Source of the DNA: an uncultured Eubacteriales bacterium
GTDB lineage: Bacteria > Bacillota > Clostridia > Oscillospirales > QAMX01
Assembly (NCBI GenBank): GCA_905205975.1
Contig: CAJLFQ010000002.1
Span: 10,134-74,133, forward strand
Reading direction: 5' to 3'
DNA: 64,000 nucleotides
This document shows, piece by piece, positions 1-14,945 of this stretch. The notes under the pieces are model-generated. The model was not told the DNA's origin, searched no databases, and saw only the letters and a program-made list of their open reading frames with translations. A program made the position numbers and the translations under genes. Position 1 is the first letter of the stretch; the number at the start of each line of letters is the position of its first letter.

Positions 1-1883
1 TGTACGACTGGGGCATCATGCAGGGCAACAACAAGGGCGAATTCAACCCGAAGGGTCTGCTCACGCGTGACGAAATGTCCAAAATTATGTACGCCATGAA
101 GGAAATCGGCCTCGACGTCGAATCCTACTACGGCGGCTTCCTGACGGCTGCTTTCGTCGACGCGGCGAAGGTTCCGGCATGGAGCAAGAACTACATGGGT
201 TATGCCTACATTGAAAACATCTTCGTCGGCAACGCGAAGAAGGAAATCAATGCGCTGGGCAACCTGTCCTACGTCCAGGCGACGATCGTTCTCCTGCGCG
301 CGCTGGGTGCTGACCGCATGTACGGGTTCGACAACAACCCGGAAGGCGTGAAAATCACCTACGTGGTGGACGGCAAGACCTACAACCTCTTCGAAGGTCC
401 GAAGTGGTTCGAGAACGCTGTTTCCTACGGCGCCAAGTACAAGCTGTTCAAGGGTCTCGACATCGCTGACTTCAACGCGAACATCACGCGTGAAGACGTC
501 GCTGTCATGATCTACAACGCTGTCGATCACGCTCCGTACGCCTTCAAGCTCGCTGAAAAGGTCGAAGGCGTTGTCATCGGCACCAAGCAGAACGACAAGA
601 AAGTTGACTGCTTCGAATTCGCAAACGGCGAACTTTACCCGATCGGCGACCTGAAGGTTGCTGACTTCATGGGCAAGAAGGTCGAATTCTGCGTCGAACC
701 CGCCGAACCCAAAGAAGATCGCAAAGTCGTTTCCGCCATCAAGTCCCTGGATAAGGGCGTTGTCAACACGACGGTCGGCGCCATCGACGAAAAAGATGGT
801 TACTACCGCGCTGACGAAAAGAACTTCGCGAAGATCGCCGAAGTTAAGACGGCTTACCTCTTCAAGAACAACACGATGAAGGGCGCAGAAGTTGCTATCG
901 ACGTTCTGAAAGACGAACTGAAAGCTGAACAGAACGGTCTGGGCTTCGAAGCCATCACCCTCATCAACAACGGCGATTCCATCTCCGTCATCTACAACCC
1001 GGTCGTCTTCATCGACGGCAACTTCGTCAAATCCATTGGCGGCATCAAGCGCGAAGTCAAGGACAACAAGTACACCGGCAAATACTACGTTACCTACAAC
1101 CGCAACGATCTGTATGTTCCGATGAAAAAGCTGGACGACAATGCATGGCTGGCAGTCCGTGTGAACGGCAACGAAGTCGAAGTCGTCGGCACCCCGAAGA
1201 CGATCGACGTCGCTGACATCAACGCTTCCGTCAAGGGCGGCAACTACACCTTCACCTACAAGGGCGAAGAAATGACTGTTGTCACCGCTAAGAACGCAGT
1301 CCTCGGCAACGTTACGATGCTCTCCAAGGATGCAGACATGTTTGACAAGATCGCCAGCAAGGACGCGAAGACGCTGAACGCACTGGTTTACGGCAACCTG
1401 ATCCTTGGTGTTTCCAAGAAGGCCGAAGCACCGAAGCCGCTGGGCACCTACGCATACGTCCTGGATGTTACGACGACCGCTTCCGCGGGCAACACGATCT
1501 ATGTCGTGAAGGCCCTTGTCAACGCCGAAATCAAGACGATCATCGTCAAGGCAGCAGGCGTTGAAGGCACGCCGGTTGTTGGCAACGTCTACGAATACAG
1601 CCTCCAGGCGAAAGACACTGACGACCTGAAGAAGGGCGACGTCGTCCTTACTAACGGCACGGAGGTCAAGCTGGACGACTGGAATGAGAAAAACTTCGAC
1701 GCAACGAAGCTCAGCGACAAGGTTGTTGTTGTTTACAACAAGGATCTTGACACGGTCATCGATGCAACGAAGCTGATCGCCAAAGACGGCGTCGTGACGC
1801 TGGAAGGCGAAGAGATCTACGAAGGCGCTCTGCGCATCTACAAAGGCGCTAAGTACATCCTCATCTGGATCCAGTACAAGTAA
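1..1883 (+). CDS. SLH-domain cell-surface (S-layer-type) protein, 5' end outside the window
   Basis: The frame is open from nt 3 (YDWGIMQGNNKGEFNPKGLLTRDEMSKIMY is an SLH repeat pattern). A second SLH-like repeat is FVDAAKVPAWSKNYMGYAYIENIFVGN. The long body is rich in V/K/T/G/N. Codon bias is strong, as in highly expressed genes. A hairpin terminator follows. Confidence 0.8.
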   Translation, partial: YDWGIMQGNNKGEFNPKGLLTRDEMSKIMYAMKEIGLDVESYYGGFLTAAFVDAAKVPAWSKNYMGYAYIENIFVGNAKKEINALGNLSYVQATIVLLRALGADRMYGFDNNPEGVKITYVVDGKTYNLFEGPKWFENAVSYGAKYKLFKGLDIADFNANITREDVAVMIYNAVDHAPYAFKLAEKVEGVVIGTKQNDKKVDCFEFANGELYPIGDLKVADFMGKKVEFCVEPAEPKEDRKVVSAIKSLDKGVVNTTVGAIDEKDGYYRADEKNFAKIAEVKTAYLFKNNTMKGAEVAIDVLKDELKAEQNGLGFEAITLINNGDSISVIYNPVVFIDGNFVKSIGGIKREVKDNKYTGKYYVTYNRNDLYVPMKKLDDNAWLAVRVNGNEVEVVGTPKTIDVADINASVKGGNYTFTYKGEEMTVVTAKNAVLGNVTMLSKDADMFDKIASKDAKTLNALVYGNLILGVSKKAEAPKPLGTYAYVLDVTTTASAGNTIYVVKALVNAEIKTIIVKAAGVEGTPVVGNVYEYSLQAKDTDDLKKGDVVLTNGTEVKLDDWNEKNFDATKLSDKVVVVYNKDLDTVIDATKLIAKDGVVTLEGEEIYEGALRIYKGAKYILIWIQYK

Positions 1884-1913
1884 GCTTTCTGAAAGCTGAA
1901 ACAGTGAACTGAG

Positions 1914-1950
1914 AAGCACCCCGCAGGGTTAACCCTGCGGGGTGCTTTTT
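1914..1950 (+). terminator. Rho-independent terminator after the SLH protein gene
   Basis: aagcaccccgcaggg-ttaa-ccctgcggggtgctt stem-loop followed by ttttt. Confidence 0.75.
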
Positions 1951-2050
1951 GCGTGTCGGGGGTAAGTTGGCGGATAGGCTGCGGGTTTGTGTTGGCGGAT
2001 ATCCGATGGTTGGTGCGTTGGGGGATATACTGCGGGTGTGTTGCGGCGGG
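1951..2050 (+). repeat. Degenerate ~25-nt tandem repeat (family B; unit approx ggcggataggctgcgggtatgtgtt)
   Basis: gcgtgtcgggggtaagttggcggataggctgcgggtttgtgttggcggatatccgatggttggtgcgttgggggatatactgcgggtgtgttgcggcggg. The same unit family recurs at 37412-37507 and, inverted, at 40131-40200, each time directly after a terminator hairpin. Confidence 0.7.
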
Positions 2051-2247
2051 AATCGATTTCCTGCCGCTGTCTTCTGTCGAAAGCGATTGCGCAAATGGCG
2101 CTTTTTTTGTATGATTTTCCATGCGCTTCGCACAAATTCTGATGAAACAGCCGGATTCGTTGCGGTTTTCCATGCTTTTTTTCTGTTTTTGCCCATAATC
2201 AGTTTTCTGATATCGATAAATACAATATTGATATCAAAAAAAGGGAA

Positions 2248-2276
2248 TTGCCAAATGCGTCGAATCATGCTATAAT
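2248..2276 (+). promoter_or_regulatory. sigma-A type promoter of the mdh-fumC-hdr-flx-frd block
   Basis: TTGCCA, 17-nt spacer, TATAAT, located 40 nt upstream of the ATG at 2316. An AT-rich region lies upstream. Confidence 0.6.
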
Positions 2277-2315
2277 AAGACCAGAAACGATTAAGTACAA
2301 TAGAGAAGGTGCGTT

Positions 2316-3260
2316 ATGAACAAAATTTCCATTATCGGTACCGGCAGCGTCGGCTCGACCATCGCTTACACCCTGACGGTTATGGGTCTGGCCTCTGAAA
2401 TCGTCATGATCGACATCAACAGCGAAAAAGCGCTGGGCGAAGCCCTGGATATCCGGCAAGGCACGCCGTTCTGCGGTGCCTGCTCCATCTACGCCGGCGA
2501 TTACCGCGACGCCGCGAATTCCAACATCGTTATCATCACGTCCGGCATTGCCCGCAAACCGGGTCAGACCCGTCTGGAACTGGCGCAGACCAACGTCAAC
2601 ATCACGAAACAGATCATCCCGGAAATCACGAAGTACGCGCCGGATGCCATTTACATCATCGTCAGCAACCCGGTGGACATCCTGACCTATACGTTCAACA
2701 AAATCTCCGGTCTGCCCGAAAGCCATATCATCGGCTCCGGCACGATTCTCGATACGGCGCGCCTCCGCGCACGCCTTTCCGAATACTACAACATCAACCA
2801 GAGCAACGTCCACGCCTACGTCTTCGGCGAACACGGGGACTCTTCCTTTATCCCGTGGTCCGTCGCCAACATCTCCAACGTGCCGATTAAGGACTGTGCA
2901 AAGCTCCTTGCGACGCCGGGCATCGCCGCACCGGAGCTCGACTATGATGAAATCACCCAGTATGTCAAAAAATCCGGCGGCCGCGTCATTGCCCGCAAAG
3001 GCGCGACGTTCTACGCCGTCTCCGTCTCCGTCTGCCACATCTGCAAATCGCTGCTCGTCGGCATCGACACGACCATGACCGTTTCCACCATGATGCACGG
3101 CGAATACGGCATCGACGACGTCTGCCTCAGCACGCTGAACATGGTCGGACACGACGGCATCCGCGGCAAGGTCAACGTCAAACTGACGGATGACGAAGTC
3201 GCGCAGCTGCAGCACAGCGCCGATACGCTGAAGGGCGTTATCAGAAGCCTCGACATCTGA
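2316..3260 (+). CDS. LDH/MDH-family L-2-hydroxyacid dehydrogenase, predicted malate dehydrogenase specificity
   Basis: Rossmann IGTGSVGS; catalytic His in FGEHGDSSF; SGTILDTARLR. The substrate loop GIARKPGQTRLEL has Arg where canonical LDH has Gln102. RBS gagaagg lies upstream. Confidence 0.85.
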   Translation: MNKISIIGTGSVGSTIAYTLTVMGLASEIVMIDINSEKALGEALDIRQGTPFCGACSIYAGDYRDAANSNIVIITSGIARKPGQTRLELAQTNVNITKQIIPEITKYAPDAIYIIVSNPVDILTYTFNKISGLPESHIIGSGTILDTARLRARLSEYYNINQSNVHAYVFGEHGDSSFIPWSVANISNVPIKDCAKLLATPGIAAPELDYDEITQYVKKSGGRVIARKGATFYAVSVSVCHICKSLLVGIDTTMTVSTMMHGEYGIDDVCLSTLNMVGHDGIRGKVNVKLTDDEVAQLQHSADTLKGVIRSLDI

Positions 3261-3298
3261 GAAAGTCCGACACAAAAACAAAAAGGGAGCGCACATTC

Positions 3299-4675
3299 AT
3301 GGATTATCGCATTGAACACGACTCGATGGGCGAAATGAAAGTCCCGGCCGACCGGCTTTGGGGCGCACAGACGCAGCGGAGCCACGAGAATTTTGAAATC
3401 GGCGTCGATATTGAAACGATGCCGCGCGAAGTGACCCACGCGTTCGGCATTCTGAAAAAGGCGGCCGCACAGGCCAACGCCGAGCTGAAACCGGAAAAAA
3501 TGACCGCGGAGAAGCTCTCCGCCATCGAAACCGCCTGTGACGAGGTCATCTCCGGCTGCCTGAACGACCATTTCCCGCTCGTCGTCTGGCAGACCGGCTC
3601 CGGCACGCAGTCCAACATGAACGCCAACGAGGTCATCGCCAACCGCGCCAACCAGATCGCCGGGCAAAAGCTCTGCCACCCGAACGACGATGTCAATATG
3701 AGCCAGTCCTCCAACGATACGTTCCCGACGGTGATTTCGATTTCCTCCGTCTGCGCGATCGAAGACAAGCTAATTCCGGCTGTTTCCGCGCTGATTGAAA
3801 CGTTCAAACGCCTGGAAGCCGAAAATGAAGACGTCGTGAAGTCCGGCCGCACCCATTTGCAGGATGCCGTTCCGATCCGCTTCAGCCAGGAAATCTCCGG
3901 CTGGCGCGCCAGCCTGGAGCGCGACGTCGAACTGCTGCGCATGGCGGTCAGACCGCTGTATGAGCTGGCGCTCGGCGGAACCGCCGTCGGCACTGGGCTG
4001 AATGCGCCGAAAGGCTTCGCAGAGCTTGTCGCACAGAAAGTCGCCGATCTGACCGGCAAACCGTTTGTCACGGCGCCGAACAAGTTCCACGCCCTGACCT
4101 CGAAAGACGAAATCGTCTTCGCGCACGGCGCCATCAAGGCGACGGCCTGCGACATGATGAAAATCGCCAACGACGTTCGCTGGCTGGCCTCCGGCCCGCG
4201 GGATGGGCTGGGCGAGATCCACATCCCCGAAAATGAACCCGGCTCCTCCATCATGCCCGGCAAGGTCAACCCGACGCAGTGCGAAGCGGTCACGATGGTC
4301 GCCGTTCAGGTCATGGGCAACGACGTCGCCGTCGGCGTCGCCGCTTCCCAGGGCAACTTTGAACTGAACGTTTTCATGCCGGTCATCGCCTATAACTTTT
4401 TGCAATCGGCACGCCTGCTGGCGGAAGCGGTCGCTTCGTTCGACAAGCACTGCGCCGCGGGCATCCGCGCCAACCGCGAAAAAATGCGCACGAACCTGTA
4501 TCATTCGCTGATGCTTGTCACGGCGCTGAACCCGTATATCGGCTATGAAAACGCGGCGAAAGTTGCGAAAAAAGCCTATAAAGAAGATATCACGCTGAAA
4601 GAGGCGTGCGTTGCGCTCGGATTCCTGACGGCGGAACGGTTTGACGAGGTTTTCCACCCGGAGCAGATGGCCTGA
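3299..4675 (+). CDS. fumC: Class II fumarate hydratase
   Basis: 458 aa with the GSSIMPGKVNPTQCE signature of the fumarase/aspartase superfamily. Also HLQDAVP and TGSGTQSNMN motifs. Starts 38 nt after the upstream gene. Confidence 0.95.
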   Translation: MDYRIEHDSMGEMKVPADRLWGAQTQRSHENFEIGVDIETMPREVTHAFGILKKAAAQANAELKPEKMTAEKLSAIETACDEVISGCLNDHFPLVVWQTGSGTQSNMNANEVIANRANQIAGQKLCHPNDDVNMSQSSNDTFPTVISISSVCAIEDKLIPAVSALIETFKRLEAENEDVVKSGRTHLQDAVPIRFSQEISGWRASLERDVELLRMAVRPLYELALGGTAVGTGLNAPKGFAELVAQKVADLTGKPFVTAPNKFHALTSKDEIVFAHGAIKATACDMMKIANDVRWLASGPRDGLGEIHIPENEPGSSIMPGKVNPTQCEAVTMVAVQVMGNDVAVGVAASQGNFELNVFMPVIAYNFLQSARLLAEAVASFDKHCAAGIRANREKMRTNLYHSLMLVTALNPYIGYENAAKVAKKAYKEDITLKEACVALGFLTAERFDEVFHPEQMA

Positions 4676-4703
4676 CCGGACGGGCAAACCGTGAGAAAGG
4701 GGT

Positions 4704-5510
4704 ATGGTCATCCACATGATGAAAGTCTGTTACTTCCCGGGCTGTACGCTGCGCACCAAGGCGAAAACGCTTGACGTCTGCGCCAGAAAATCGGCGGAAG
4801 CGCTGGGCGTTGCACTCTGCGAACCGGAAAACTGGCAGTGCTGCGGCGGCGTGTTTGTCAGCGCGAAGGATGAAATCGCAACCAAGCTGTCGAGCGTCCG
4901 CGCGCTGATTGCCGCGCGGGATGCGGGCCAGCCGCTGGTGACCGTCTGCTCGGCCTGTCATAACGTCATCAAGCAGACGAACGACGCCGTGCAGAACGAT
5001 CCGGAATTTGCCGGAAAAGTCAACCGCTATCTCGCGCAGGACAAAACCGGCAGCGCGCCGTATGCGGGCGAAACGAAAGTATACCATTATCTGGAACTCC
5101 TGCGCGATGTCATCGGCTTTGACAAGCTCAAGGCCGCCGTCAAGCATCCGCTGACCGGCCGGAAAATCGCCGCCTATTACGGCTGCATGCTCCTGCGGCC
5201 CGGCAAGGTCATGCAGTTTGACGACGTGGAAAATCCGCGCATTCTCGAAGATTTTATCCGCGCGCTGGGCGCGGAACCGGTCGTTTCGCCGATGCGGAAC
5301 GAATGCTGCGGCGGATACGTCGCGCTGGAAGACCCGGCTTCCGCCCAAAAGAAGAGCCGTGCCGTCAGCGAAAGCGCAGCGGCGCACGGCGCAGAGGAAA
5401 TCGTGACGGCTTGTCCGCTCTGCCGCTACAACCTTGTGAAAAATGACAGCCCTGTCCCTGTCGTATACTTTACCGAGCTGCTGGCGGAAGCGCTCGGCGT
5501 CGAACTCTGA
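4704..5510 (+). CDS. hdrB: HdrB-like CCG-domain protein (heterodisulfide reductase B / SdhE / TfrB-type)
   Basis: Two CCG motifs: C..QCCGG-(34 aa)-CSAC and C..ECCGG..CPLC. The start could instead be ATG 4716. Confidence 0.85.
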   Translation: MVIHMMKVCYFPGCTLRTKAKTLDVCARKSAEALGVALCEPENWQCCGGVFVSAKDEIATKLSSVRALIAARDAGQPLVTVCSACHNVIKQTNDAVQNDPEFAGKVNRYLAQDKTGSAPYAGETKVYHYLELLRDVIGFDKLKAAVKHPLTGRKIAAYYGCMLLRPGKVMQFDDVENPRILEDFIRALGAEPVVSPMRNECCGGYVALEDPASAQKKSRAVSESAAAHGAEEIVTACPLCRYNLVKNDSPVPVVYFTELLAEALGVEL

Positions 5511-5530
5511 GTGAAGTGTGAGGATTTTGC

Positions 5531-5929
5531 ATGCAGAATTCATCTGAACGCCTGAAAGAGCAGGTTCTGAGAATCAGCGGCGTCAACCCGCGCAAATGTA
5601 TGCGCTGCGGGAAATGCTCCGGAACCTGCCCCGCATATGACGAAATGGAATATCATCCGCATCAGTTTGTCTACCTGGTGGAAACCGGCGACATTGAAAC
5701 GCTGATGCAGTCAAAGTCCATCTACAAATGCCTGTCCTGCTTTGCCTGCGTGGACCGCTGCCCCCGCGGCGTGGAACCGGCAAAGCTGGTCGAAGCCATC
5801 CGCCTCAGCGTGATCCGCGAAAAAGGCGCCAACCACCTGACCGCAGACGATCTGCCGCCGCTTGCCGAAGCGGATCCGGATCTGCCGCAGCAGGCCGTTG
5901 TCAGCGCCATGCGGAAATATTCGAAATAA
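5531..5929 (+). CDS. hdrC: HdrC-like 2x[4Fe-4S] ferredoxin-domain protein
   Basis: CMRCGKCSGTCP and CLSCFACVDRCP cluster motifs. 132 aa, adjacent to the hdrB-like gene. Confidence 0.8.
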   Translation: MQNSSERLKEQVLRISGVNPRKCMRCGKCSGTCPAYDEMEYHPHQFVYLVETGDIETLMQSKSIYKCLSCFACVDRCPRGVEPAKLVEAIRLSVIREKGANHLTADDLPPLAEADPDLPQQAVVSAMRKYSK

Positions 5930-5947
5930 GAAAGGAGAGACGAAACC

Positions 5948-7942
5948 ATGCAAAGAATTGGCGTATTTGTCTGCCACTGCGGCACGAACATCGCCGGAAC
6001 GATCGACGTCAAAGCGGTCGCCGCAGCGCTCCTGCACGAACCGGGTGTCGTTTTCTCCGCTGATTATCCGTATATGTGCTCTCAGGCAGGGCAGAACCTC
6101 ATCAAGGAAGCCATTGCTGAACATCACCTGACCGGCATCGTCGTCTGCTCCTGCTCGCCGCGGATGCACGAGGCGACCTTCCGCAAGACGGCGGCGGCCG
6201 CCGGGCTGAACGCCTATATGGTCGAAATCGCCAACATCCGCGAACAGTGCTCGTGGGTGCACAAGGATATGGCCACCGGCACGGAAAAGGCCATCATCCT
6301 GGGCAAAGCGGCTGTCGCAAAGGTCAACCTGAACACGCCGCTGACGCCGGGTCAAAGCCCGGTCACGAAGCGCGCGCTCGTCATCGGCGGCGGTATCGCC
6401 GGCATCCAGACGGCGCTCGACATCGCCGACGCCGGTTTCCCGGTGGACATCGTGGAAACCAAGCCGACCATCGGCGGCAAAATGGCGCAGCTCGACAAAA
6501 CGTTCCCGACGCTCGACTGCGCGGCCTGTATCCTGACGCCGAAAATGGTGGACGTCGCACAGAACGAAAACATCCGCATCTTCTCGTATTCCGAAGTGAC
6601 CGCCGTCAAGGGCTACGTCGGCAACTTCGATGTGACGATCAAACGCCGCGCGCGCTATGTCAAAGAAGACCTCTGCACCGGCTGCGGCGCCTGCACGGAA
6701 AAATGCCCGCAGAAGAAAATCCCGAACGAATTCAACCTCGGCATGGATAACCGCCATGCAATCTATATCCCGTTTGCACAGGCCGTCCCGAAGGTTGCGA
6801 CGATTGACCCCGAACACTGCATGAAGCTCAAAACGGGCAAATGCGGCGTCTGCTCAAAAGTCTGCACCGCAGGCGCAATCGACTACGAAGCGAAAGACGA
6901 ATTCATCGATGAAAAGTACGGCGCCATCGTCGTCGCCACCGGCTTCGACCCGATTTCCATGGAGCCGTTTGACGAGTTCGCATACGCGCAGTCGCAGGAC
7001 GTCATCACGTCGCTCGAACTGGAGCGCCTGATGAACGCGGCCGGCCCGACCGGCGGCACGCTGCTGCGCCCGTCGGATCACGAACATCCGCACACGATCG
7101 TCTTTGTCCAATGCGTCGGGTCGCGCTGCGCGGCCTGCTCGGAAAAGGGCAAGGAATACTGCTCGAAGATCTGCTGTATGTACACCGCGAAACACGCGAT
7201 GCTCATCCGCGACAAATACCCGGACACCGACGTTTATGTCTTCTATATCGACGTCCGGACGCCGGGCAAGAACTTCGACGAGTTCTACCGCCGCGCCGTT
7301 GAAGAATACGGCGTGCATTATATCAAAGGCATGGTCGGCAAGGTTTCGCCGGAGGGCAAAAAGCTCAAGGTGCAGGCCTCTGACCTGATCTACGGCAAAC
7401 AGCTTCACATCGACGCCGATCTGGTCGTTCTGGCGGCCGCCATCGAACCGGACAAATCGGCCCGCCCGCTGGCGACGATGCTGACGGCCAGCATGGATAC
7501 GAACGACTTCTTCACCGAAGCGCACCCGAAGCTGCGCCCGGTCGAAAGCCCGACGGCCGGCGTGTTCCTCTCCGGCACCTGCCAGGGGCCGAAAGACATT
7601 CCGGAAACGGTCGCACAGGCCGGCGCCGCGGCGTCGAAAGTCATCGGCCTGCTCGCCAAGGATCACCTCGTCGGCAACCCGTGCGTCGCACATTCCGATG
7701 AGATGATGTGCAACGGCTGTTCCACCTGCGCCAACGTCTGCCCGTACGGCGCGATCACATATGAAGACAAAGACTTCAGGATGCCGGACCGCACGACGAA
7801 ACGCCGTCGTGTCGCCGTCGTCAACGAAGCGGTCTGTCAGGGCTGCGGCGCCTGCACCGTCGCATGTATGTCCGGCGCAATGGATCTGCGCGGCTTCCTG
7901 ACACGGCAAATCATGGCGGAGGTAGACGCGATATGCAAGTAG
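5948..7942 (+). CDS. hdrA: HdrA-like FAD- and Fe-S-containing oxidoreductase (putative bifurcating flavoprotein)
   Basis: N-terminal VFVCHCGTNI Cys domain; FAD fold ALVIGGGIAGIQTALDIADAG; FVQCVGSR. Inserted and C-terminal ferredoxin motifs: CTGCGACTEKCP, CGVCSKVCTAGA, CNGCSTCANVCPYGA, CQGCGACTVAC. Confidence 0.9.
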   Translation: MQRIGVFVCHCGTNIAGTIDVKAVAAALLHEPGVVFSADYPYMCSQAGQNLIKEAIAEHHLTGIVVCSCSPRMHEATFRKTAAAAGLNAYMVEIANIREQCSWVHKDMATGTEKAIILGKAAVAKVNLNTPLTPGQSPVTKRALVIGGGIAGIQTALDIADAGFPVDIVETKPTIGGKMAQLDKTFPTLDCAACILTPKMVDVAQNENIRIFSYSEVTAVKGYVGNFDVTIKRRARYVKEDLCTGCGACTEKCPQKKIPNEFNLGMDNRHAIYIPFAQAVPKVATIDPEHCMKLKTGKCGVCSKVCTAGAIDYEAKDEFIDEKYGAIVVATGFDPISMEPFDEFAYAQSQDVITSLELERLMNAAGPTGGTLLRPSDHEHPHTIVFVQCVGSRCAACSEKGKEYCSKICCMYTAKHAMLIRDKYPDTDVYVFYIDVRTPGKNFDEFYRRAVEEYGVHYIKGMVGKVSPEGKKLKVQASDLIYGKQLHIDADLVVLAAAIEPDKSARPLATMLTASMDTNDFFTEAHPKLRPVESPTAGVFLSGTCQGPKDIPETVAQAGAAASKVIGLLAKDHLVGNPCVAHSDEMMCNGCSTCANVCPYGAITYEDKDFRMPDRTTKRRRVAVVNEAVCQGCGACTVACMSGAMDLRGFLTRQIMAEVDAICK

Positions 7943-8394
7943 ACACGCAAGCAAACGAATACAGACCGCTCATCGTGGCGTTCTGCTGCAACTGGTGTTC
8001 CTATGCGGGCGCCGACCTGGCGGGCAATAACCGCCTGAGCTATCCGGCCGACGTCAAAATCATCCGCGTGCCCTGCTCCTGCCGGGTGAACCCGATGTTC
8101 ATCCTGCGCGCGTTCCAGCGCGGAGCAGACGGCGTCATTCTCTGCGGCTGCCACCCCGGCGACTGCCACTATACGTCTGGCAACTACTATACCCGCCGCC
8201 GGATGGCCCTGCTCTTCTCGATGCTCGACTACTTGGGCATTGAACGGCAGCGGACGCGCGTCGAATGGGTCTCTGCGGCAGAAGGCGCAAAATTTGCCGC
8301 AACGATGAAAGACTTTGTCGAAACCGTCGCCGCGCTCGGCGAGAACAAGAGATTGGAGGATTTACGATGCAAGCAATCGGACGCGAATCGCTGA
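7933..8394 (+). CDS. mvhD: MvhD/FlxD-like [2Fe-2S] electron-transfer protein
   Basis: IVAFCCNWCSYAGADLAG, VPCSCRV and CGCHPGDCHY motifs. ATG 7933 overlaps the hdrA stop by 10 nt. The track start at 7864 lies inside hdrA and is unlikely. Confidence 0.85.
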   Translation: MQVDTQANEYRPLIVAFCCNWCSYAGADLAGNNRLSYPADVKIIRVPCSCRVNPMFILRAFQRGADGVILCGCHPGDCHYTSGNYYTRRRMALLFSMLDYLGIERQRTRVEWVSAAEGAKFAATMKDFVETVAALGENKRLEDLRCKQSDANR

Positions 8395-9356
8395 TCGATA
8401 CCGCAAAACGCCTGCTCGAAAACGGCACGGTTGACCGTGTGCTCGGCTGGAAGCGCGGCGAATTTGCCTATGACGTGACGCCGGCGCTCTTCACTTCGGC
8501 GGAAGCGATGGCGCAGGATTTCGTTTGGAACGACTTCTGCGGTGCGAATTTCTCCAAATATCTCGTCAAAGAAACGGCTAAGGGCGACGGAAAAGTGCTT
8601 GTTTTCCTGAAACCCTGCGATACGTACAGCTTCAATCAGCTCCTGACCGAACACCGCTTTGACCGTGAAAAGGTCTATGCCGTCGGCATTCCCTGTGAAG
8701 GGATGCTCGACGCCGGGAAACTCCGCGCCGCGGCGGACGGTATTGCCGCCGTTCAGACCGAAGGCGACACGGTGACGGTCGAAACCCTGTACGACGGTAC
8801 GCGCACCTTCCCGCGTGAAACGATGCTGCCCGACCGCTGCGTACACTGCAAATCCAAAAAACACGTCGCCTACGACGAGCTGCTCGGCGAAGACGGCGAC
8901 GTGCGCGACGCCGGACGCTTCGACGAGGTCGAAGCGCTGGAACGGATGACGCCGGACGAACGGTTTGCCTTCTGGCAGAACGAGCTCTCCCGCTGCATCC
9001 GCTGCAACGCATGCCGCGACGTATGTCCGGCCTGCACCTGCGAAAAATGCGTATTTGACAACCCGAATTCCGGCGTTGAAAACAAAGCGGCGTCGAATTC
9101 GTTTGAAGAAAAACTCTTCCATATCATCCGGGCGTTCCACGTCGCCGGACGCTGCACCGACTGCGGCGAATGCTCCCGCGTCTGCCCGCAGCACATCCCG
9201 CTGCACCTGCTGAACCGGAAATTCATCCACGACATCGACCGCTTCTACGGCGATTATCAGGCGGGTGAAACGGTCGGCAGCCGTGCTCCGATTGTCAACT
9301 ATCAGACGGACGATCTCGAACCGGGTGAAGCGGTAGGAGGGCATGAACATGCGTAA
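8367..9356 (+). CDS. Fe-S cluster protein, FlxB/C- or sulfhydrogenase-beta-like polyferredoxin
   Basis: CIRCNACRDVCPACTCEKC and CTDCGECSRVCPQHIP motifs plus CVHCKSKK. ggagga RBS before ATG 8367. Overlaps the mvhD-like gene by 28 nt. Confidence 0.75.
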   Translation: MQAIGRESLIDTAKRLLENGTVDRVLGWKRGEFAYDVTPALFTSAEAMAQDFVWNDFCGANFSKYLVKETAKGDGKVLVFLKPCDTYSFNQLLTEHRFDREKVYAVGIPCEGMLDAGKLRAAADGIAAVQTEGDTVTVETLYDGTRTFPRETMLPDRCVHCKSKKHVAYDELLGEDGDVRDAGRFDEVEALERMTPDERFAFWQNELSRCIRCNACRDVCPACTCEKCVFDNPNSGVENKAASNSFEEKLFHIIRAFHVAGRCTDCGECSRVCPQHIPLHLLNRKFIHDIDRFYGDYQAGETVGSRAPIVNYQTDDLEPGEAVGGHEHA

Positions 9357-10374
9357 AATTGCACTGCATCAACTCGAATCGCTGTTTGCGGCCATCGAAG
9401 AGAACGCTGCGCTGTACCTGCCGGTCGATACGGCCGCCGGTGCAAAGTTCGAACGCTGGGCGCGCGGGAAAACGCTGTCCGACGCGCTGAACACCGTGCG
9501 CGGCCCGAAGGATTTCTTCTTTCCGCAGACGGAAAACCTGATGGACTTCAAAGTTGAAGGCAAACAGATTGAAATCATTGACACGCGCAAAGAAAGCGAA
9601 GATTTCGTCGTGTTCGGCGTCCGCGCCTGCGACGTCAAGAGCTTTGACATTCTGGACCGCGTCTTCCTGTCGGAGCCGGTCGATACCTATTACAAAAACC
9701 GCCGGGAACACGGCGTGATTTTCTCGCTCGCCTGCACGCGGCCGGCCGAAACCTGCTTCTGCGGGACGTTCGGCATCGACGCCGCAAACCCGGCCGGCGA
9801 CGTCGCCTGCTGGAAGACGGAAGACGCGCTCTATCTGGATGCGAAGACCGAAAAGGGCGCGGCGCTGCTTGCAAAGCTTGAAGCCGTGACCGAACCGGCC
9901 GAAACCGAACCGGTTGAAGCGCAGAAAGCGCAGACCGCCGAACGGCTGGCAAAGCTGCCGCTCGCTGACCTGAAGGCGGACGCCTTCGGCGACGGCAAGA
10001 CGTCGGCGTTCTTCAACGCGCCGGAGTGGAAATCGCTTTCGGAATCCTGCCTCGGCTGCGGCACCTGCACGTTTGTCTGCCCGACCTGCCAATGCTACGA
10101 TATCAAGGATTTCAACACCGGACACGGCGTCAAGCGCTTCCGCTGCTGGGATTCGTGCATGTATTCCGAATTTACCAAGATGTCGGCCGGTCAGCCGCGA
10201 CTGACGCAGCTGGAACGGTTCCGTCAGCGGTTCATGCACAAACTCGTTTATTATCCGACCAACAACGACGGGCTCTTCTCCTGCGTCGGCTGCGGCCGCT
10301 GCGTCGCAAAGTGCCCGATTCAGATGAACATCGTCAAAGTCATGAAAACGCTGGGAGGCCGAGAACATGCCTGA
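9349..10374 (+). CDS. AsrA/HydB-like 4Fe-4S protein (FlxB/C-like)
   Basis: FGVRACD, CTRPAETCFCGTFG, CLGCGTCTFVCPTCQCYD and CVGCGRCVAKCP motifs. aggagg RBS 8 nt before ATG 9349 (the track start at 9343 is also possible). Overlaps the upstream gene. Confidence 0.8.
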   Translation: MRKIALHQLESLFAAIEENAALYLPVDTAAGAKFERWARGKTLSDALNTVRGPKDFFFPQTENLMDFKVEGKQIEIIDTRKESEDFVVFGVRACDVKSFDILDRVFLSEPVDTYYKNRREHGVIFSLACTRPAETCFCGTFGIDAANPAGDVACWKTEDALYLDAKTEKGAALLAKLEAVTEPAETEPVEAQKAQTAERLAKLPLADLKADAFGDGKTSAFFNAPEWKSLSESCLGCGTCTFVCPTCQCYDIKDFNTGHGVKRFRCWDSCMYSEFTKMSAGQPRLTQLERFRQRFMHKLVYYPTNNDGLFSCVGCGRCVAKCPIQMNIVKVMKTLGGREHA

Positions 10375-11200
10375 AATGAAAGAACCGCTGATCCCGGCGA
10401 TCGGCGTTGTGACCGACATCCGCATCGACACGCCGGACGTCAAGACGTTCCGCGTCGTGACGCCGGACGGCAAAAAAGCGTTTGAGCATAAGCCCGGCCA
10501 GTGCGCCATGCTGTCGATTCCCGGCGTCGGCGAAGCGATGTTTTCCATCACCTCGTCGCCGACGAATGAAGCATTTATGGAGTTTTCCATCAAAAAGTGC
10601 GGCTGCGTGACCGAATGGCTCCATTCGATGGAGGTCGGCCAGCAGATTACGATCCGCGGGCCCTACGGCAACGGCTTCCCGGTCGATACAGCGTTCACCG
10701 GACACGACCTGCTGTTCATCGCCGGCGGCATCGGTCTTGCGCCGCTGCGCTCCGTCATCAACTACTGCCGCCACTACCGCGACCGTTACGGCAAGATCGA
10801 CATCGTCTACGGCTCCCGCAGCATGCAGGACCTCGTCGATTACCGTGAAATCGTCGAAGAGTGGACGAAGGATACCGGCGTCAGCGTCCATCTGACGATC
10901 GACCGCGAACAGCCGGAATGGGACGGCCATGTCGGATTCGTCCCGAATTACGTCAAAGAGCTGGCTTTCCCGACGGACAAAATTGCCATTCTCTGCGGCC
11001 CGCCGATCATGATCAAGTTTACGCTGGCCGGCTTGCAGGAGCTGGGCTTTGACAAAACGCAGGTGTATACGACGATGGAACTGCGCATGAAGTGCGGCAT
11101 CGGCAAATGCGGCCGGTGCAACATCGGCGCGAAGTACGTCTGCAAAGACGGTCCGGTTTTCCGCTGCGACCAGCTCGACGAACTGCCGAACGAATATTAA
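10367..11200 (+). CDS. FAD/NAD(P)H-binding ferredoxin-reductase-type subunit with C-terminal 2Fe-2S (AsrB/HydG/FlxA/PyrK-like)
   Basis: FNR-like fold (FEHKPGQCAML, FSITSSP, LLFIAGGIGLAPLRS). C-terminal CGIGKCGRCN cluster motif. Overlaps the upstream gene by 8 nt. gggagg RBS. Confidence 0.85.
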   Translation: MPEMKEPLIPAIGVVTDIRIDTPDVKTFRVVTPDGKKAFEHKPGQCAMLSIPGVGEAMFSITSSPTNEAFMEFSIKKCGCVTEWLHSMEVGQQITIRGPYGNGFPVDTAFTGHDLLFIAGGIGLAPLRSVINYCRHYRDRYGKIDIVYGSRSMQDLVDYREIVEEWTKDTGVSVHLTIDREQPEWDGHVGFVPNYVKELAFPTDKIAILCGPPIMIKFTLAGLQELGFDKTQVYTTMELRMKCGIGKCGRCNIGAKYVCKDGPVFRCDQLDELPNEY

Positions 11201-11327
11201 GGAGACCGCCGGACGGGCTTTTCGAAACGTCTGCGCGGCTCTCCCGAAAAACTTTTCTGTCCCTTCTGTCCCATGGATCCCAAGCACATCCAACCAATCC
11301 CACTCACACCACAAAAGGAGTGTATGC

Positions 11328-12005
11328 ATGATGGAAAACATGGTCAACGTCTTCCTGTTCGGGAAGCAGTATACGGTCCCGGGCGATCTGACGATTATGC
11401 GTGCCATGGAATATGCCGGCTATCAGCTGATTCGCGGCTGCGGCTGCCGGAACGGATTCTGCGGCGCCTGCGCGACCATCTACCGCATCAAAGGCGACCG
11501 GGAACTCAAAACGTGCCTCGCCTGTCAGACCAAGGTTGAAAACAACATGTATGTCGCGACCCTGCCGTTCTTCCCGCTGGTCAAACAGGTCTACGACATC
11601 AACAAAGTCAAACCCACCGAACAGATCATGATGCAGCTCTATCCGGAGATCTACGCCTGCGTTGGCTGCAACGCCTGCACGAAGAGCTGCACCCAGTCGC
11701 TGAACGTCATGCAGTACATCGCCTATGCCCAGCGCGGCGAATTTGACAAGTGCGCAGAAGAATCGTTCGACTGCGTGATGTGCGGCGTCTGTTCGTCCCG
11801 CTGCCCGGCCGGGATTTCGCATCCGCAGGTCGCCATGCTGGCGCGCCGCCTGAACGGCAAATACCTCGCCCCGAAGAGCGAACATCTGGAAGAACGCGTC
11901 AAGGAAATCAAAGACGGCACGTTCAACGACCTGATCGAAGCGCTGATGGGCAAACCGGTCGAAGAACTCAAAGAACTCTACAACAACCGCGAAATCGAAA
12001 AGTGA
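11328..12005 (+). CDS. frdB: Succinate dehydrogenase/fumarate reductase iron-sulfur subunit-like protein
   Basis: N-terminal 2Fe-2S motif CGCRNGFCGACATIY..C. Then CVGCNACTKSC and CVMCGVCSSRCPAG. aaggag RBS 7 nt upstream. Confidence 0.8.
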   Translation: MMENMVNVFLFGKQYTVPGDLTIMRAMEYAGYQLIRGCGCRNGFCGACATIYRIKGDRELKTCLACQTKVENNMYVATLPFFPLVKQVYDINKVKPTEQIMMQLYPEIYACVGCNACTKSCTQSLNVMQYIAYAQRGEFDKCAEESFDCVMCGVCSSRCPAGISHPQVAMLARRLNGKYLAPKSEHLEERVKEIKDGTFNDLIEALMGKPVEELKELYNNREIEK

Positions 12006-12018
12006 GGTGGCTCTGACC

Positions 12019-13614
12019 ATGTACGCGAACGAATTTCAGGAATCCCTCAAGGCGGTCGAAGCCGCCCGTCAAGCCAACATCGCCTATGAACCGGCGCGCA
12101 TGACCGCGCAGGAGAAAGACGATCTGCTGGCAGCCTATCACCCGGACTACAAGAAAAGCGAATTTTCAACGCTGAAAATCGGCCCGAACAAGGGCGAAAA
12201 TGTCCCGCATGAACTGTGCGATATGCTTCAGGCGCACAGCCGCATCTCCGCGGAAGACGTCGACCTCGAAGACATCCGCTATGACGTCGATGTGCTGATC
12301 ATCGGCGGCGGCGGCGCAGGCGCTTCTGCGGCTATTGAAGCCGACAACGCGGGCGCAAAAACCATGATCGTGACGAAGCTCCGCATCGGCGACGCCAACA
12401 CCATGATGGCAGAAGGCGGCATTCAGGCTGCCGACAAGCCGAACGACTCTCCGGCGATCCACTTCCTGGATGCCTTCGGCGGCGGTCATTTTGCGGCCAA
12501 ACGCGAACTGCTCGCCAAGCTCGTCTGCGATGCGCCGGAAGCCATTCAGTGGCTCAACGATCTGGGCGTCGAATTCGACAAAGCGCCGGACGGCACCATG
12601 ATCACCACCCACGGCGGCGGCACCTCCCGCAAGCGGATGCATGCCGCGAAAGACTACTCCGGCGCCGAAATCATGCGTACGCTCCGCGACGAAGTGCTGA
12701 ACCGCGGAATCCCGGTCGTTGATTTCACGTCGGCGGTCGAACTGATCCTCGATGAAAACGGCAGAGCCGCCGGAGCCGTCCTCATGAACATGGAGACGAA
12801 AGAGCTGATGGTTGCCCGCGCGAAAACCGTCATTTTGGCGACGGGCGGCGCAGGCCGGATGCATTATCAGGGCTTCCCGACCTCGAACCACTACGGCGCG
12901 ACGGCAGACGGTCTGGTGCTCGGCTACCGTGCAGGCGCAAAACTGCTGTATGCCGACACGCTGCAATACCATCCGACGGGCGCGGCCTTCCCGCAGCAGA
13001 TCTTTGGTGCGCTCGTCACCGAAAAAGTCCGCTCGCTCGGCGCGAAGCTCGTCAACCGCGACGGCAAAGTCTTCATGCACCCGCTGGAAACACGCGACGT
13101 TGCGGCGGCTTCGATCATCCGTGAATGCTCCGACCGCGATGAAGGCGTCGATACCGGCAGCGGCAAGGCCGTCTGGCTCGACACGCCGATGATTGAGGCC
13201 ATCGGCGGCGAGGGGACGATTGAACGCCGCATCCCGGCCATGATGCGTATGTTCGGCAGCTACGGCATCGACATCCGCAAAGAGCCGATCCTCGTCTACC
13301 CTACACTGCACTATCAGAACGGCGGTTTGGACATCCGCGTGGACGGCATGACGCCGAACGTGGAAAACCTGTATGTCGCGGGCGAAGCCGTCGGCGGCAT
13401 CCACGGCCGCAACCGCCTGATGGGCAACTCACTGCTGGACGTCATCGTCTTCGGGCGCAGCGCCGGTCAGCATGCCGCCGTGCAGGCGAGAACGGTCAGC
13501 AACGGTCGCCTGACGCTTGCCCACATCGCCGCGTTTGACGCGGAGCGGGCGGCGGCCGGCATCGAAACCGACCTCGTCTCGCCGAAACTCCTGCCGGATT
13601 ACCGCCGGAAATAA
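12019..13614 (+). CDS. frdA: Fumarate reductase/succinate dehydrogenase flavoprotein-like subunit (soluble type, non-covalent FAD predicted)
   Basis: DVLIIGGGGAGASAAIEA dinucleotide fold. Active-site-like motifs HPTG, VRSLGA, LHYQNGGL and HGRNRLMGNSL. The ATG at 12019 has an RBS (gaggtgg), whereas the track start at 12007 is GTG. There is a ~95-aa N-terminal extension. Confidence 0.85.
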   Translation: MYANEFQESLKAVEAARQANIAYEPARMTAQEKDDLLAAYHPDYKKSEFSTLKIGPNKGENVPHELCDMLQAHSRISAEDVDLEDIRYDVDVLIIGGGGAGASAAIEADNAGAKTMIVTKLRIGDANTMMAEGGIQAADKPNDSPAIHFLDAFGGGHFAAKRELLAKLVCDAPEAIQWLNDLGVEFDKAPDGTMITTHGGGTSRKRMHAAKDYSGAEIMRTLRDEVLNRGIPVVDFTSAVELILDENGRAAGAVLMNMETKELMVARAKTVILATGGAGRMHYQGFPTSNHYGATADGLVLGYRAGAKLLYADTLQYHPTGAAFPQQIFGALVTEKVRSLGAKLVNRDGKVFMHPLETRDVAAASIIRECSDRDEGVDTGSGKAVWLDTPMIEAIGGEGTIERRIPAMMRMFGSYGIDIRKEPILVYPTLHYQNGGLDIRVDGMTPNVENLYVAGEAVGGIHGRNRLMGNSLLDVIVFGRSAGQHAAVQARTVSNGRLTLAHIAAFDAERAAAGIETDLVSPKLLPDYRRK

Positions 13615-13635
13615 AACAGAAAGCCAGGGAATAAC

Positions 13636-13944
13636 ATGACAGATTTTCTTGAGGCCATGACCATCTTCTGCTTTGGTCTTTCGTGGCCGATCTCCATCCG
13701 CAAATCGCTCGTCTCCCGCACGGCAAAGGGCAAGAGCCTGTTCTTTGAAATCTTCCTCCTGATCGGCTACGCCTGCGGCATCGCCCGCAAGGTGATCCAG
13801 ACGGTAGAGGGCAGCAGCGGCTTCCTCTTCTATCTGAGCTTCTTCTTCTATGTGCTGAACTTCATCGAGATCTCCATCGACGTCATGCTGTACTTCCGGA
13901 ACAAAAAGCTGGACGAAGCGGCGGAAGCGGCACAGCTGGCATAA
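13636..13944 (+). CDS. Small 3-TM membrane protein (PQ-loop/SemiSWEET-like, tentative)
   Basis: 102 aa with three hydrophobic segments and a WPISIRK loop reminiscent of a PQ-loop. Begins 21 nt after frdA. Function not established. Confidence 0.5.
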   Translation: MTDFLEAMTIFCFGLSWPISIRKSLVSRTAKGKSLFFEIFLLIGYACGIARKVIQTVEGSSGFLFYLSFFFYVLNFIEISIDVMLYFRNKKLDEAAEAAQLA

Positions 13945-13992
13945 CCTGCAGTTTTTCCACAGTCCGGCGATCATCAATCAAAGGCGGTACCT

Positions 13993-14622
13993 ATGAAACA
14001 GGCAGAAGTATCCCGGGCGACCATCGGCCGGATCCCGACATATCTGAAATACCTGAAGAGCATCCGGCACACGGAGACCATTTCGGCAACGGCCCTCGCG
14101 CATGCGCTTGGGCTGGGCGAGGTGCAGGTGCGGAAGGATCTGAGCGCCGTCTCCGGCGCGGGGCGCCCGCGGGTCGGATACCATACGCGTCAGCTGATCC
14201 GTGCGTTTGAATCCTTCCTGAGCGGAGACGACAGCCTTGTCGTCATCGCCGGCGCGGGGAAGCTCGGCCGGGCGCTGCTCGATTACGGCGGGTTTGACGA
14301 ATACGGTCTGCACGTTGCAGCGGCGTTCGATATCGCCGTTCAAACGGCGGAACAAAGCAACACCGGCAAGCCGGTTTTCCCCATGCGGGAGCTGGCGGAT
14401 TTCTGCCGGACGCACGCGGTCCGCATCGGCGTCATCGCCGTCCCGGCGGAAGCGGCGCAGTCGGTCTGCGACCAGTTTCTGACCTGCGGGATTCAGGCGA
14501 TCTGGTGCTTTGCACCGTGTATGCTGCATGTGCCGGAAGGGTTCCCGGTGCAGTATGAAAACATGGCGCTGTCGCTGGCGCATCTGAACAAAAAAATCCA
14601 GTGCGCAGAGACGCCCAAATAG
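13993..14622 (+). CDS. rex: Redox-sensing transcriptional repressor Rex
   Basis: N-terminal winged-helix VSRATIGRIPTYLKYL. Rossmann VVIAGAGKLGRALL. 209 aa. Confidence 0.9.
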   Translation: MKQAEVSRATIGRIPTYLKYLKSIRHTETISATALAHALGLGEVQVRKDLSAVSGAGRPRVGYHTRQLIRAFESFLSGDDSLVVIAGAGKLGRALLDYGGFDEYGLHVAAAFDIAVQTAEQSNTGKPVFPMRELADFCRTHAVRIGVIAVPAEAAQSVCDQFLTCGIQAIWCFAPCMLHVPEGFPVQYENMALSLAHLNKKIQCAETPK

Positions 14623-14663
14623 AACGCGCAACCTGATTAGAAACCAGAAAGGACATCGATTTT

Positions 14664-14909
14664 ATGAAAGTAACCGTTTGTATCGGCTCTTCCTGCCATG
14701 TCAAAGGTTCGCACAGCGTGGTCAAACAGCTGCAGGAACTGATTCAGGAAAAAGGCCTTGAAGACAAAATTGAGCTTGCCGGCACGTTCTGCATGGGCAA
14801 ATGCCAGCTCGGCGTCTGCACAACCGTAGACGGCGAATTCTATTCCGTGACGCCCGAAACGACGAAAGCGTTTTTTGAAAACGACATCCTGCCGAAGCTT
14901 GATGCATAA
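14664..14909 (+). CDS. Thioredoxin-like [2Fe-2S] ferredoxin-type protein
   Basis: 81 aa with a CIGSSCHVKG...CMGKC Cys pattern. Sits immediately upstream of the hydrogenase. Confidence 0.7.
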   Translation: MKVTVCIGSSCHVKGSHSVVKQLQELIQEKGLEDKIELAGTFCMGKCQLGVCTTVDGEFYSVTPETTKAFFENDILPKLDA

Positions 14910-14945
14910 GAAACGTTCGCCAATTTCTGTTTTTGGAGGTTTACC

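Follow-up and report, generated by a model that had tools for sequence, protein, structure and literature searches.

Putative fumarate reductase genes in Flx-Hdr operons

Fumarate reductase genes lying together with flxABCD-hdrABC genes have been described previously. In Pseudoclostridium thermosuccinogenes, a succinate producer, a 'succinate operon' is composed of a fumarate hydratase gene, seven genes of the Flx-Hdr type, a pair of fumarate reductase genes, and a terminal gene coding for a small hypothetical protein, for which the authors suggested a role in succinate export (PMC7282089). This operon is about 4-fold upregulated at low CO2, and succinate formation was abolished by H2 (PMC7282089). 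Koendjbiharie and van Kranenburg proposed that NADH-dependent fumarate reduction is coupled here to ferredoxin reduction, a proposal that the 2020 article gives by reference to a 2019 preprint (BMC Microbiol 2020, PMC7282089, citing 10.20944/preprints201912.0288.v1). In sulfur-oxidising tubeworm symbionts and in Thioflavicoccus mobilis, tfrAB genes are interspersed with flxABCD-hdrABC and korABCD, and both a thiol shuttle and a direct complex bifurcating to ferredoxin/OGOR and fumarate reductase have been raised as explanations (Rubin-Blum 2019, PMC6315080 and its Text S1). Here we describe an operon of this type in a 64,000-nucleotide stretch of contig CAJLFQ010000002.1 from an uncultured Eubacteriales bacterium, referred to in its entirety as the window.

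The operon consists of eleven co-directional open reading frames (ORFs) on the + strand at 2316–13614, which code in order for a predicted malate dehydrogenase, a fumarase (FumC), HdrB-, HdrC- and HdrA-like proteins, an MvhD/FlxD connector, FlxC-, FlxB- and FlxA-like proteins, and an FrdB-like and an FrdA-like protein (together referred to as FrdBA). The window is a further case of the system proposed in 2019–2020, and its gene composition agrees with the description of the 'succinate operon'. Both organisms are Clostridia, with orthology to CDQ83_RS03320-65 resting on the published description of that operon; the window differs in having an extra dehydrogenase gene in front, with arginine at position 102 (Arg102), and in coming from a mesophile of the human gut that is related to Yeguia. 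In the tubeworm symbionts and Thioflavicoccus a Tfr-like fumarate reductase is likewise located beside flxABCD-hdrABC, but in an autotrophic reverse tricarboxylic acid cycle setting with kor and acl genes.

We favour the interpretation that the operon encodes a cytoplasmic, quinone-independent route from oxaloacetate to succinate, the last step of which would be catalysed by a multi-subunit NADH:fumarate oxidoreductase built on an Hdr core and bifurcating to ferredoxin. As a whole this model seems to us reasonably probable, and we have considerable confidence in the more modest claim that FrdBA reduces fumarate and is functionally coupled to Flx-Hdr.

Gene content and organization of the operon

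The predicted site of fumarate reduction is a flavoprotein related to FrdA and TfrA (12019–13614), with a strong match to FAD_binding_2 (PF00890, 9.7e-68). About 90 residues precede the Rossmann motif and constitute an N-terminal extension, and Succ_DH_flav_C (PF02910) is missing, the alignments ending near residue 430 of FrdA. Its best curated model is TfrA (NF004900), which it matches at 321 bits (cut-off 718) over model positions 6–407 of 546; the relatives P0121, P0129 and P0136 do not reach this cut-off over their full length either, and P0209, which passes it, is 42% identical to the FrdA-like protein. From the TfrA score, the coverage and the domain findings, we place the family beside TfrA, as an apparently TfrA-related group that is truncated C-terminally and extended N-terminally. 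An AlphaFold2 model that includes the extension has a pLDDT of 91.9 and a pTM of 0.92, and Foldseek aligns it with flavocytochrome c3 (Fcc3) and with E. coli FrdA, SdhA and NadB, at TM-scores of about 0.7 over about 450 columns.

When aligned to E. coli SdhA, FrdA and NadB, the FrdA-like protein keeps the HPTG histidine, the Thr-Glu pair, the arginine of the TE..R motif, the proton-donor arginine, the second histidine and the second arginine. In two family alignments, one of 12 sequences (representatives of 50%-identity clusters) and one of 103 sequences, residues His318, Glu335, Arg338, Arg359, His431 and Arg466, as well as Asn127, show no variation or almost none; Thr334 is conserved throughout the 103-sequence alignment, and a distant representative of a 50%-identity cluster, P0174, has lost it. 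Asn127 (in ANTM, ANTMMAEGG) occupies the position of the histidine that carries covalent FAD in SdhA and FrdA (SHTV/AHTV), and FAD is thus predicted to be bound non-covalently. Asparagine is found at this position in both family alignments and in 79 of the 80 Clostridia loci compared below. SdhA/FrdA enzymes depend on the covalent-FAD histidine to oxidise succinate efficiently, and its replacement probably favours fumarate reduction over succinate oxidation. The sole locus of the 80 with a histidine (GDAHTMMAEGG) is L062, from a yak cecum metagenome-assembled genome (MAG; JAGBUH010000054).

We also considered whether the flavoprotein could be an L-aspartate oxidase, and rejected this reading: the NadB model TIGR00551 scores 266 bits against a cut-off of 452.75, NadB residue Glu121 is replaced by histidine (NadB TREGGH aligns to TTHGGG), and the neighbouring genes are mdh, fumC and hdr. 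The partner of the flavoprotein is a divergent FrdB-like iron-sulfur subunit (11328–12005) that matches Fer2/Fer2_4 and Fer4_9/7, contains a 2Fe-2S motif and two CxxCxxCxxxC motifs, and aligns to the N-terminal positions 19–94 of TfrB. The two are tied together by P0123 (727 aa), a 50%-cluster representative that is a natural FrdB::FrdA fusion and is 55% identical to the FrdA-like protein over residues 212–727.

The seven genes upstream of this pair make up the Hdr-Flx module, for which, as elsewhere in the operon, domains were assigned by Pfam and NCBIfam profile searches. The HdrB-like protein (4704–5510) contains two CCG domains (PF02754, two stretches), with both C..CCG..CxxC motifs intact, and matches HdrB 8RVV_B with an E-value of 1.4e-31; because this alignment begins at residue 6, the true start is probably at 4716 or 4719. 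Its top NCBIfam match is the SdhE model of MFR, at 140 bits against a cut-off of 500. The HdrC-like protein (5531–5929; Fer4_17/Fer4_8, TIGR03290 2.1e-16) contains two CxxCxxCxxxCP motifs, corresponding to two [4Fe-4S] clusters. HdrA (5948–7942), an FAD- and iron-sulfur-containing flavoprotein and the presumed site of bifurcation, aligns over residues 3–661 to residues 5–648 of the solved bifurcating HdrA (5ODC_A; E-value 1.9e-203), with the cluster cysteines conserved. With the HdrA2 model the score is 783 bits, short of the 1100 set as the equivalog cut-off, since MvhD is encoded separately in the operon; this MvhD/FlxD [2Fe-2S] connector (7933–8394; PF02662 6.7e-55) aligns to the C-terminal MvhD part of HdrA2.

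The remaining three proteins of the module have different affinities. The FlxC-like iron-sulfur protein (8367–9356) contains two 4Fe-4S motifs, has generic Fer4 matches only (Fer4_8/Fer4_9), and is faintly FrhB-like in its N-terminal part (FrhB_FdhB_N/C, E-value 0.008). The FlxB-like iron-sulfur protein (9349–10374) belongs to the HydB/ShyB/AsrA family (Fer4_22 2.2e-29, ShyB 3e-57) and matches the beta subunit of Pyrococcus furiosus sulfhydrogenase I (9NEZ_B) with an E-value of 2.7e-42. The FlxA-like protein (10367–11200) is an FNR-fold FAD/NAD(P)H subunit with a C-terminal 2Fe-2S domain of the PyrK type (FAD_binding_6, NAD_binding_1, DHODB_Fe-S_bind) and is HydG/AsrB-like. The Flx-Hdr part thus has the architecture of FlxABCD-HdrABC, with HdrA, an HdrB with two CCG domains, HdrC, and FlxA to FlxD. 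HdrA, HdrB, HdrC and MvhD are full homologues of the bifurcating Mvh-Hdr core, and FlxA, FlxB and FlxC probably form a pyridine-nucleotide input module of the FNR/HydBG type.

The two genes at the left end of the operon are predicted to act on C4-dicarboxylates. The first (2316–3260; Ldh_1_N/C) encodes an NAD dehydrogenase of the lactate dehydrogenase (LDH) clade; it passes the NCBIfam L-LDH cut-offs, scores 274.8 against a cut-off of 283 with the malate dehydrogenase model, and has L-LDHs as its nearest solved structures. However, it has arginine at position 102 (motif GIARKPGQTR), as do 47 of 47 operon-linked orthologues, and a change of Gln102 to arginine shifts LDH specificity to oxaloacetate/malate. 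Because Arg102 is invariant we have not adopted the reading as a plain LDH, although the profile evidence still favours the LDH clade, and the enzyme is predicted to reduce oxaloacetate to malate. The second gene (3299–4675) encodes a class II fumarate hydratase, FumC (Lyase_1 3.5e-110, FumaraseC_C), which with TIGR00979 scores 702 bits, above the cut-off of 664.75. Judged from these features, the Arg102 dehydrogenase and FumC can supply fumarate; Arg102, a bona fide FumC and the missing covalent-FAD histidine all seem to fit the reductive direction.

The genes are closely packed, with junctions that are, from 5′ to 3′, gaps of 38, 28, 20 and 18 nt, overlaps of 10, 28, 8 and 8 nt, and gaps of 127 and 13 nt. 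A sigma-70-type promoter at 2248–2276 (TTGCCA-17-TATAAT with an extended TG; 11/12 matches, read directly from the sequence) lies about 40 nt 5′ of the first ATG and is the top sigma-70-like site within 1800–15000 in a promoter scan, and the first gene has the ribosome-binding site GAGAAGG. The upstream gene, which encodes an SLH-domain protein, ends in a strong terminator hairpin (1914–1947) with a perfect 17-bp stem. The single strong promoter and the tight or overlapping junctions support organization as one operon. An earlier note on the window, made from the sequence alone, had listed the same eleven ORFs, spacings, promoter and gene identities and the lack of a membrane anchor; the positions and spacings were reproduced from the coordinates, the profile searches of each ORF agree with the identities, the promoter is the one noted, and neither FrdC/D nor SdhC/D genes are present.

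The 127-nt spacer between flxA and frdB (11201–11327) is unusually long and not conserved, and contains a stem-loop directly after the flxA stop codon (about 11201–11244). Because the corresponding gap has a median of 14 nt in relatives, and is 8–20 nt in most, the spacer is peculiar to this window. An internal terminator or promoter was considered and rejected: the folding of the whole region is no better than that of shuffled sequences (z-score −1.18), no + strand terminator was found in the scan, and promoter-like sequence overlapping the gap is limited to one weak 9/12 match on the minus strand. In one relative (L030, 8466–9299) a 277-residue ORF with an HxHxDH motif, which is typical of metallo-beta-lactamase-fold proteins, sits between flxA and frdB, indicating that this junction tolerates insertions, like the spacer here.

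Conservation of the linkage and the proposed mechanism

Relatives of the operon were sought using one genome per species, and the neighbourhoods of the best 80 loci were compared by tblastn with all window proteins. At least 598 stretches among about 600 matches listed, in species-representative genomes, encode a relative of the FrdA-like protein. Nearly all of the matches listed are from gut or rumen Clostridia MAGs, together with the cultured Yeguia hominis NSJ-40 (91% identity), in which the operon is complete (L012). The order hdrB-hdrC-hdrA-flxD-flxC-flxB-flxA-frdB-frdA is the same in every locus, among the best 80, whose upstream DNA extends far enough, and fumC and mdh precede it in nearly all; mdh is missing in five, two of which also have no fumC.

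More distant relatives fall into two groups. First, in an archaeal clade (Bathyarchaeota and Asgard) whose FrdA proteins are 54% identical, FrdBA is found with HdrA in six of the seven sampled loci, in several arrangements. In one (L082) the order is HdrA-MvhD-MvhG-MvhA-HycI-HdrC-HdrB-FrdB-FrdA, with an MvhDGA hydrogenase as input; in L083/84 and L091 an HdrA::MvhD fusion adjoins Hdr(C)B-FrdBA, and in L089 such a fusion adjoins FrdBA alone; in L085 and L090, Hdr(C)BA, an iron-sulfur flavoprotein of about 1000 residues, MvhD and an FrhB-like protein are followed by FrdBA. In the seventh (L081), FrdBA is preceded by malic enzyme and by fumarase alpha and beta. We found no description of archaeal FrdBA-Hdr loci with swapped inputs in the literature consulted on such systems. 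We note that the HdrA gene of L082 (2563–4590, Asgard MAG JBNGVH010000002) contains one in-frame TGA (4141–4143) beyond which homology continues; this position aligns to no cysteine of the HdrA in the window, and the codon could reflect selenocysteine, stop-codon recoding, an assembly error or a pseudogene.

Secondly, in the sampled Gammaproteobacteria (L086, L087 and L088), with FrdA proteins 46% identical, the genes form three-gene units of FrdB, FrdA and a NuoF-like protein (Complex1_51K), unlike the published tfrAB-flxABCD-hdrABC clusters. In a Ridgeia symbiont the unit has mdh upstream and korAB downstream. Each such unit resembles a simple soluble NADH:fumarate reductase. The gammaproteobacterial FrdA-like proteins are labelled L-aspartate oxidase by several database sources.

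Taken across these groups, FrdBA appears to be a portable soluble fumarate-reductase module that always occurs among C4-dicarboxylate genes. Its association with the Hdr core is kept across domains while the donor module varies, and the retention of the core while inputs change between Clostridia and Archaea suggests that the core itself supplies the function. The occurrence of FrdBA beside Hdr cores with varied archaeal inputs also suggests that CCG-cluster proteins can relay electrons between proteins.

In the mechanism that we propose, the malate dehydrogenase and FumC would feed fumarate from oxaloacetate, and NAD(P)H, presumably NADH, would reduce the FAD of FlxA, the presumed entry point. 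Electrons would then pass through the FlxB and FlxC clusters and the 2Fe-2S centre of FlxD to the FAD of HdrA, where each electron pair would be split. The downhill electron would travel by way of HdrC, the CCG clusters of HdrB, and FrdB to the FAD of FrdA and on to fumarate, whereas the uphill electron would leave through the ferredoxin-like domain of HdrA to ferredoxin, the net reaction being 2 NADH + fumarate + Fd(ox) → 2 NAD+ + succinate + Fd(red). The HdrB clusters would thus hand electrons on to a partner protein, with no disulfide-reducing role, and reduced ferredoxin would be spent on Rnf or hydrogenase, such that a quinone-less fermenter could gain energy from fumarate reduction. With established potentials of about +30 mV for fumarate/succinate, −320 mV for NAD and about −420 to −500 mV for ferredoxin, the overall reaction would be exergonic. 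Fumarate is a stronger acceptor than either crotonyl-CoA or the heterodisulfide, both of which drive known bifurcations.

The earlier note had also arrived at NADH entry at FlxA and electron splitting by HdrA between fumarate and ferredoxin, and in the light of the motifs, the FrdA site and the linkage this is the best-supported reading. It had assigned the flavoprotein to fumarate unless it should cluster with NadB, AprA or other enzymes, and had looked to gene neighbourhoods for conserved linkage; TfrA is the best match and the fumarate-site residues are kept, and the gene order is invariant in the Clostridia loci and recurs in Archaea with other inputs. Our literature searches agree with its statement that it knew of no biochemically characterised complex of this composition, although the novelty this implied goes too far, the same coupling having been proposed already (PMC6315080, PMC7282089).

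Several points weigh against the proposed mechanism. Fumarate-dependent ferredoxin reduction is deduced from the parts list and motifs, physical association of FrdBA with HdrBC is suggested by gene order, and co-transcription across the 127-nt gap in this window is a prediction. The FlxA-like protein may use NADH or NADPH, HdrB keeps a complete disulfide-reducing CCG site and so might act on a thiol/disulfide substrate, and the FrdB-like protein matches SdhB weakly (E-value about 1e-3). There is no ferredoxin gene within the operon. FrdBA also has no intrinsic need of Hdr or bifurcation, because the gammaproteobacterial clade pairs it with a NuoF-like protein alone. Finally, no Flx-Hdr or Hdr-Frd complex was found among the PDB structures searched, and no biochemical or structural characterisation of any Hdr-linked fumarate reductase in the literature to mid-2026.

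The alternative that survives best is a non-bifurcating NADH:fumarate reductase, in which all electrons would go to fumarate and HdrABC would be a wire or regulatory scaffold that leaves ferredoxin untouched. The gammaproteobacterial units of FrdBA with a NuoF-like NADH module alone indicate that a direct NADH-to-Frd route exists in the family, electron transfer from NADH to fumarate is in itself strongly exergonic, and the operon has no ferredoxin gene of its own. However, seven extra subunits are maintained in strict synteny in the best 80 Clostridia loci, among them a complete HdrA in which no cluster of the bifurcating enzyme is missing; Clostridia and Archaea differ in their input modules yet both keep the Hdr core; and in P. 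thermosuccinogenes succinate formation is suppressed by H2 (PMC7282089). We regard this alternative as unlikely.

In a second alternative, modelled on methanogens, Flx-Hdr would use NADH to reduce a soluble or protein disulfide in a reaction that also bifurcates to ferredoxin, and FrdBA together with a CCG protein would re-oxidise the thiols with fumarate, in the manner of thiol:fumarate reductase. That TfrA is the best curated model for the FrdA-like protein fits this scheme, as do the complete CCG site in HdrB and the manner in which the FrdB-, HdrC- and HdrB-like proteins jointly cover TfrB (NF004898) at positions 19–94, 123–219 and 262–486, and the option was also raised in PMC6315080 (Text S1). 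A shuttle needs two sites, one reducing disulfide and the other oxidising thiol, but the operon has one CCG protein, its FrdB-like protein is without a CCG domain, and it contains no thiol-carrier gene (DsrC, CoM/CoB synthesis); moreover, FrdBA is without an adjoining CCG protein in the archaeal locus L089 and in the NuoF-linked gammaproteobacterial units. Direct iron-sulfur wiring is favoured over a shuttle because FrdBA has no CCG domain, a CCG partner is absent in some lineages, and the operon has a single CCG protein, and we consider the shuttle improbable.

Operation in reverse, with succinate oxidised to fumarate, NADH made in a confurcating reaction pulled by reduced ferredoxin, and FumC and Mdh continuing to oxaloacetate, can be argued for in that flavin-based bifurcating enzymes are generally reversible, the same genes serve both directions, and the gut is rich in succinate; we think it very improbable, given the asparagine in place of the covalent-FAD histidine in 79 of 80 Clostridia loci and both family alignments and the fact that the organism with the best-studied such operon is a succinate producer. 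Coincidental co-transcription, with the flavoprotein having aspartate (NadB-like) or another enoate as its substrate and an unrelated acceptor being served by Flx-Hdr, we consider equally improbable, for although scores with NadB models come close to those with Sdh/Frd models, some database sources call relatives 'L-aspartate oxidase', and the family fails every curated cut-off, the residue corresponding to NadB Glu121 is histidine, the score is 266 bits against 452.75, and fumarase, malate dehydrogenase or malic enzyme adjoin in Clostridia, Bathyarchaeota and Gammaproteobacteria, where nadA and nadC are never neighbours.

Returning to the bifurcating NADH:fumarate oxidoreductase, a broader proposal can be considered, although we put it forward tentatively and as somewhat less than an even prospect. 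HdrABC might be a general bifurcating adaptor for ancient modular soluble fumarate reductases of gut and rumen Clostridia, Bathyarchaeia and Asgard archaea, in which the TfrA-related FrdBA, with its non-covalent FAD and N-terminal extension, would be constant, the non-cubane CCG clusters of HdrB would pass electrons to another protein in place of reducing a disulfide, and the inputs would be swapped: Flx for NADH, MvhAG for H2, and an FrhB-like protein for F420H2 or NADPH.

Were the bifurcating mechanism true, fumarate would join crotonyl-CoA, the heterodisulfide, pyruvate and others as a high-potential bifurcation acceptor, and succinate production with energy conservation in quinone-less Clostridia would be explained, with ferredoxin passing to Rnf or H2. 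The broader proposal, if correct, would imply a quinone-free, energy-conserving 'fumarate respiration' in hundreds of species of gut Clostridia; succinate is a key cross-feeding and host-signalling metabolite. The hypothesis has stood since 2019 and will not surprise the specialist, but the system lends itself to the demonstration of a new class of bifurcating enzymes, with the cultured Yeguia hominis NSJ-40 and, for the simpler NuoF-linked unit, the Thiorhodococcus minor genome as starting points. Added here are its breadth in Clostridia, including a culturable host, the invariant asparagine and Arg102 signatures, the FrdB::FrdA fusion, and the recurrence across domains of Hdr-FrdBA with swapped inputs.

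Flanking genes and comparison with known systems

To the right of the operon are genes that recur in some relatives. A small membrane protein with three transmembrane segments (13636–13944, + strand; 102 residues) begins 21 nt after frdA, and in about 23 related loci an ORF of this kind immediately follows frdA. We considered it as a haem or membrane anchor and rejected this role, as it contains no histidine, has no family match beyond DUF2304 (E-value 0.004), and is present in those approximately 23 loci only; it is probably an optional accessory. It is followed by a Rex redox-sensing repressor gene (13993–14622, + strand; NF003994 224 bits, cut-off 130), and about one relative in four has Rex close to the operon. 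No match to the Rex operator TTGTKAW-N4-WTMACAA with up to two mismatches was found in the window, and Rex control of the operon therefore remains speculative. A group B 'monomeric' [FeFe] hydrogenase gene (14946–16370, + strand; TIGR04105 563 bits) comes next, and is near the operon in a few relatives.

Other neighbours encode an SLH-domain surface protein (18–1883), SpoIID (18801–19850, − strand) and RNase Y (23062–24885), consistent with a spore-forming Bacillota host, and a VWA protein and a peptide-binding protein are encoded elsewhere in the window. Between the upstream terminator and the operon promoter there are two imperfect 43-nt direct repeats, 74% identical and 51 nt apart (1961–2054). 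Directly 5′ of the −35 hexamer is a 16-nt inverted repeat, TTTTCTGATATCGATA / TATTGATATCAAAAAA, with arms at 2203–2218 and 2226–2241 that are 88% complementary. Its core pattern was not found in any of 88 related loci, and we do not regard it as a conserved operator.

Comparison with characterised enzymes shows a combination of shared and differing features. The operon shares with complex II (FrdABCD, SdhABCD) the fumarate-site residues and FAD_binding_2, but is without the covalent-FAD histidine, Succ_DH_flav_C and the membrane anchor. A CCG protein likewise stands beside an SdhAB-type pair in type E succinate:quinone reductases and MFR (SdhABE); those enzymes are membrane-associated, quinone-linked and contain covalent FAD, whereas the window has HdrA/Flx, a predicted non-covalent FAD and no indication of a quinone site. 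Methanothermobacter TfrAB (Heim et al. 1998, as cited in PMC6315080) is, as there described, similarly soluble, anchor-less and CCG-associated. However, the FrdA-like protein is below the TfrA cut-off, lacks the C-terminal domain and has an N-terminal extension, and the CCG domains that are fused to the iron-sulfur subunit in TfrB are here on a separate HdrB of a full HdrABC. By the TfrA cut-off and the fused CCG domains the pair falls outside TfrAB, and it likewise falls outside complex II and NadB.

For the Flx-Hdr part, all seven module types are shared with the Desulfovibrio vulgaris FlxABCD-HdrABC (Ramos et al. 2015, cited in PMC7282089 and PMC6315080), a comparison made by type only. The order in the window is reversed (hdrBCA-flxDCBA), there is no adh or dsrC in or beside the operon, and the presumed high-potential acceptor is fumarate by way of FrdBA as opposed to the DsrC disulfide. 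With the methanogen MvhADG-HdrABC complex (PDB 5ODC), HdrA can be aligned over its full length, HdrB matches at an E-value of about 1e-31, and the MvhD connector is present; the input of the window is an NAD(P)H module where the methanogen has a [NiFe] hydrogenase. Clostridia are also without CoM-S-S-CoB metabolism, but an archaeal relative of FrdBA, in L082, does use MvhAG.

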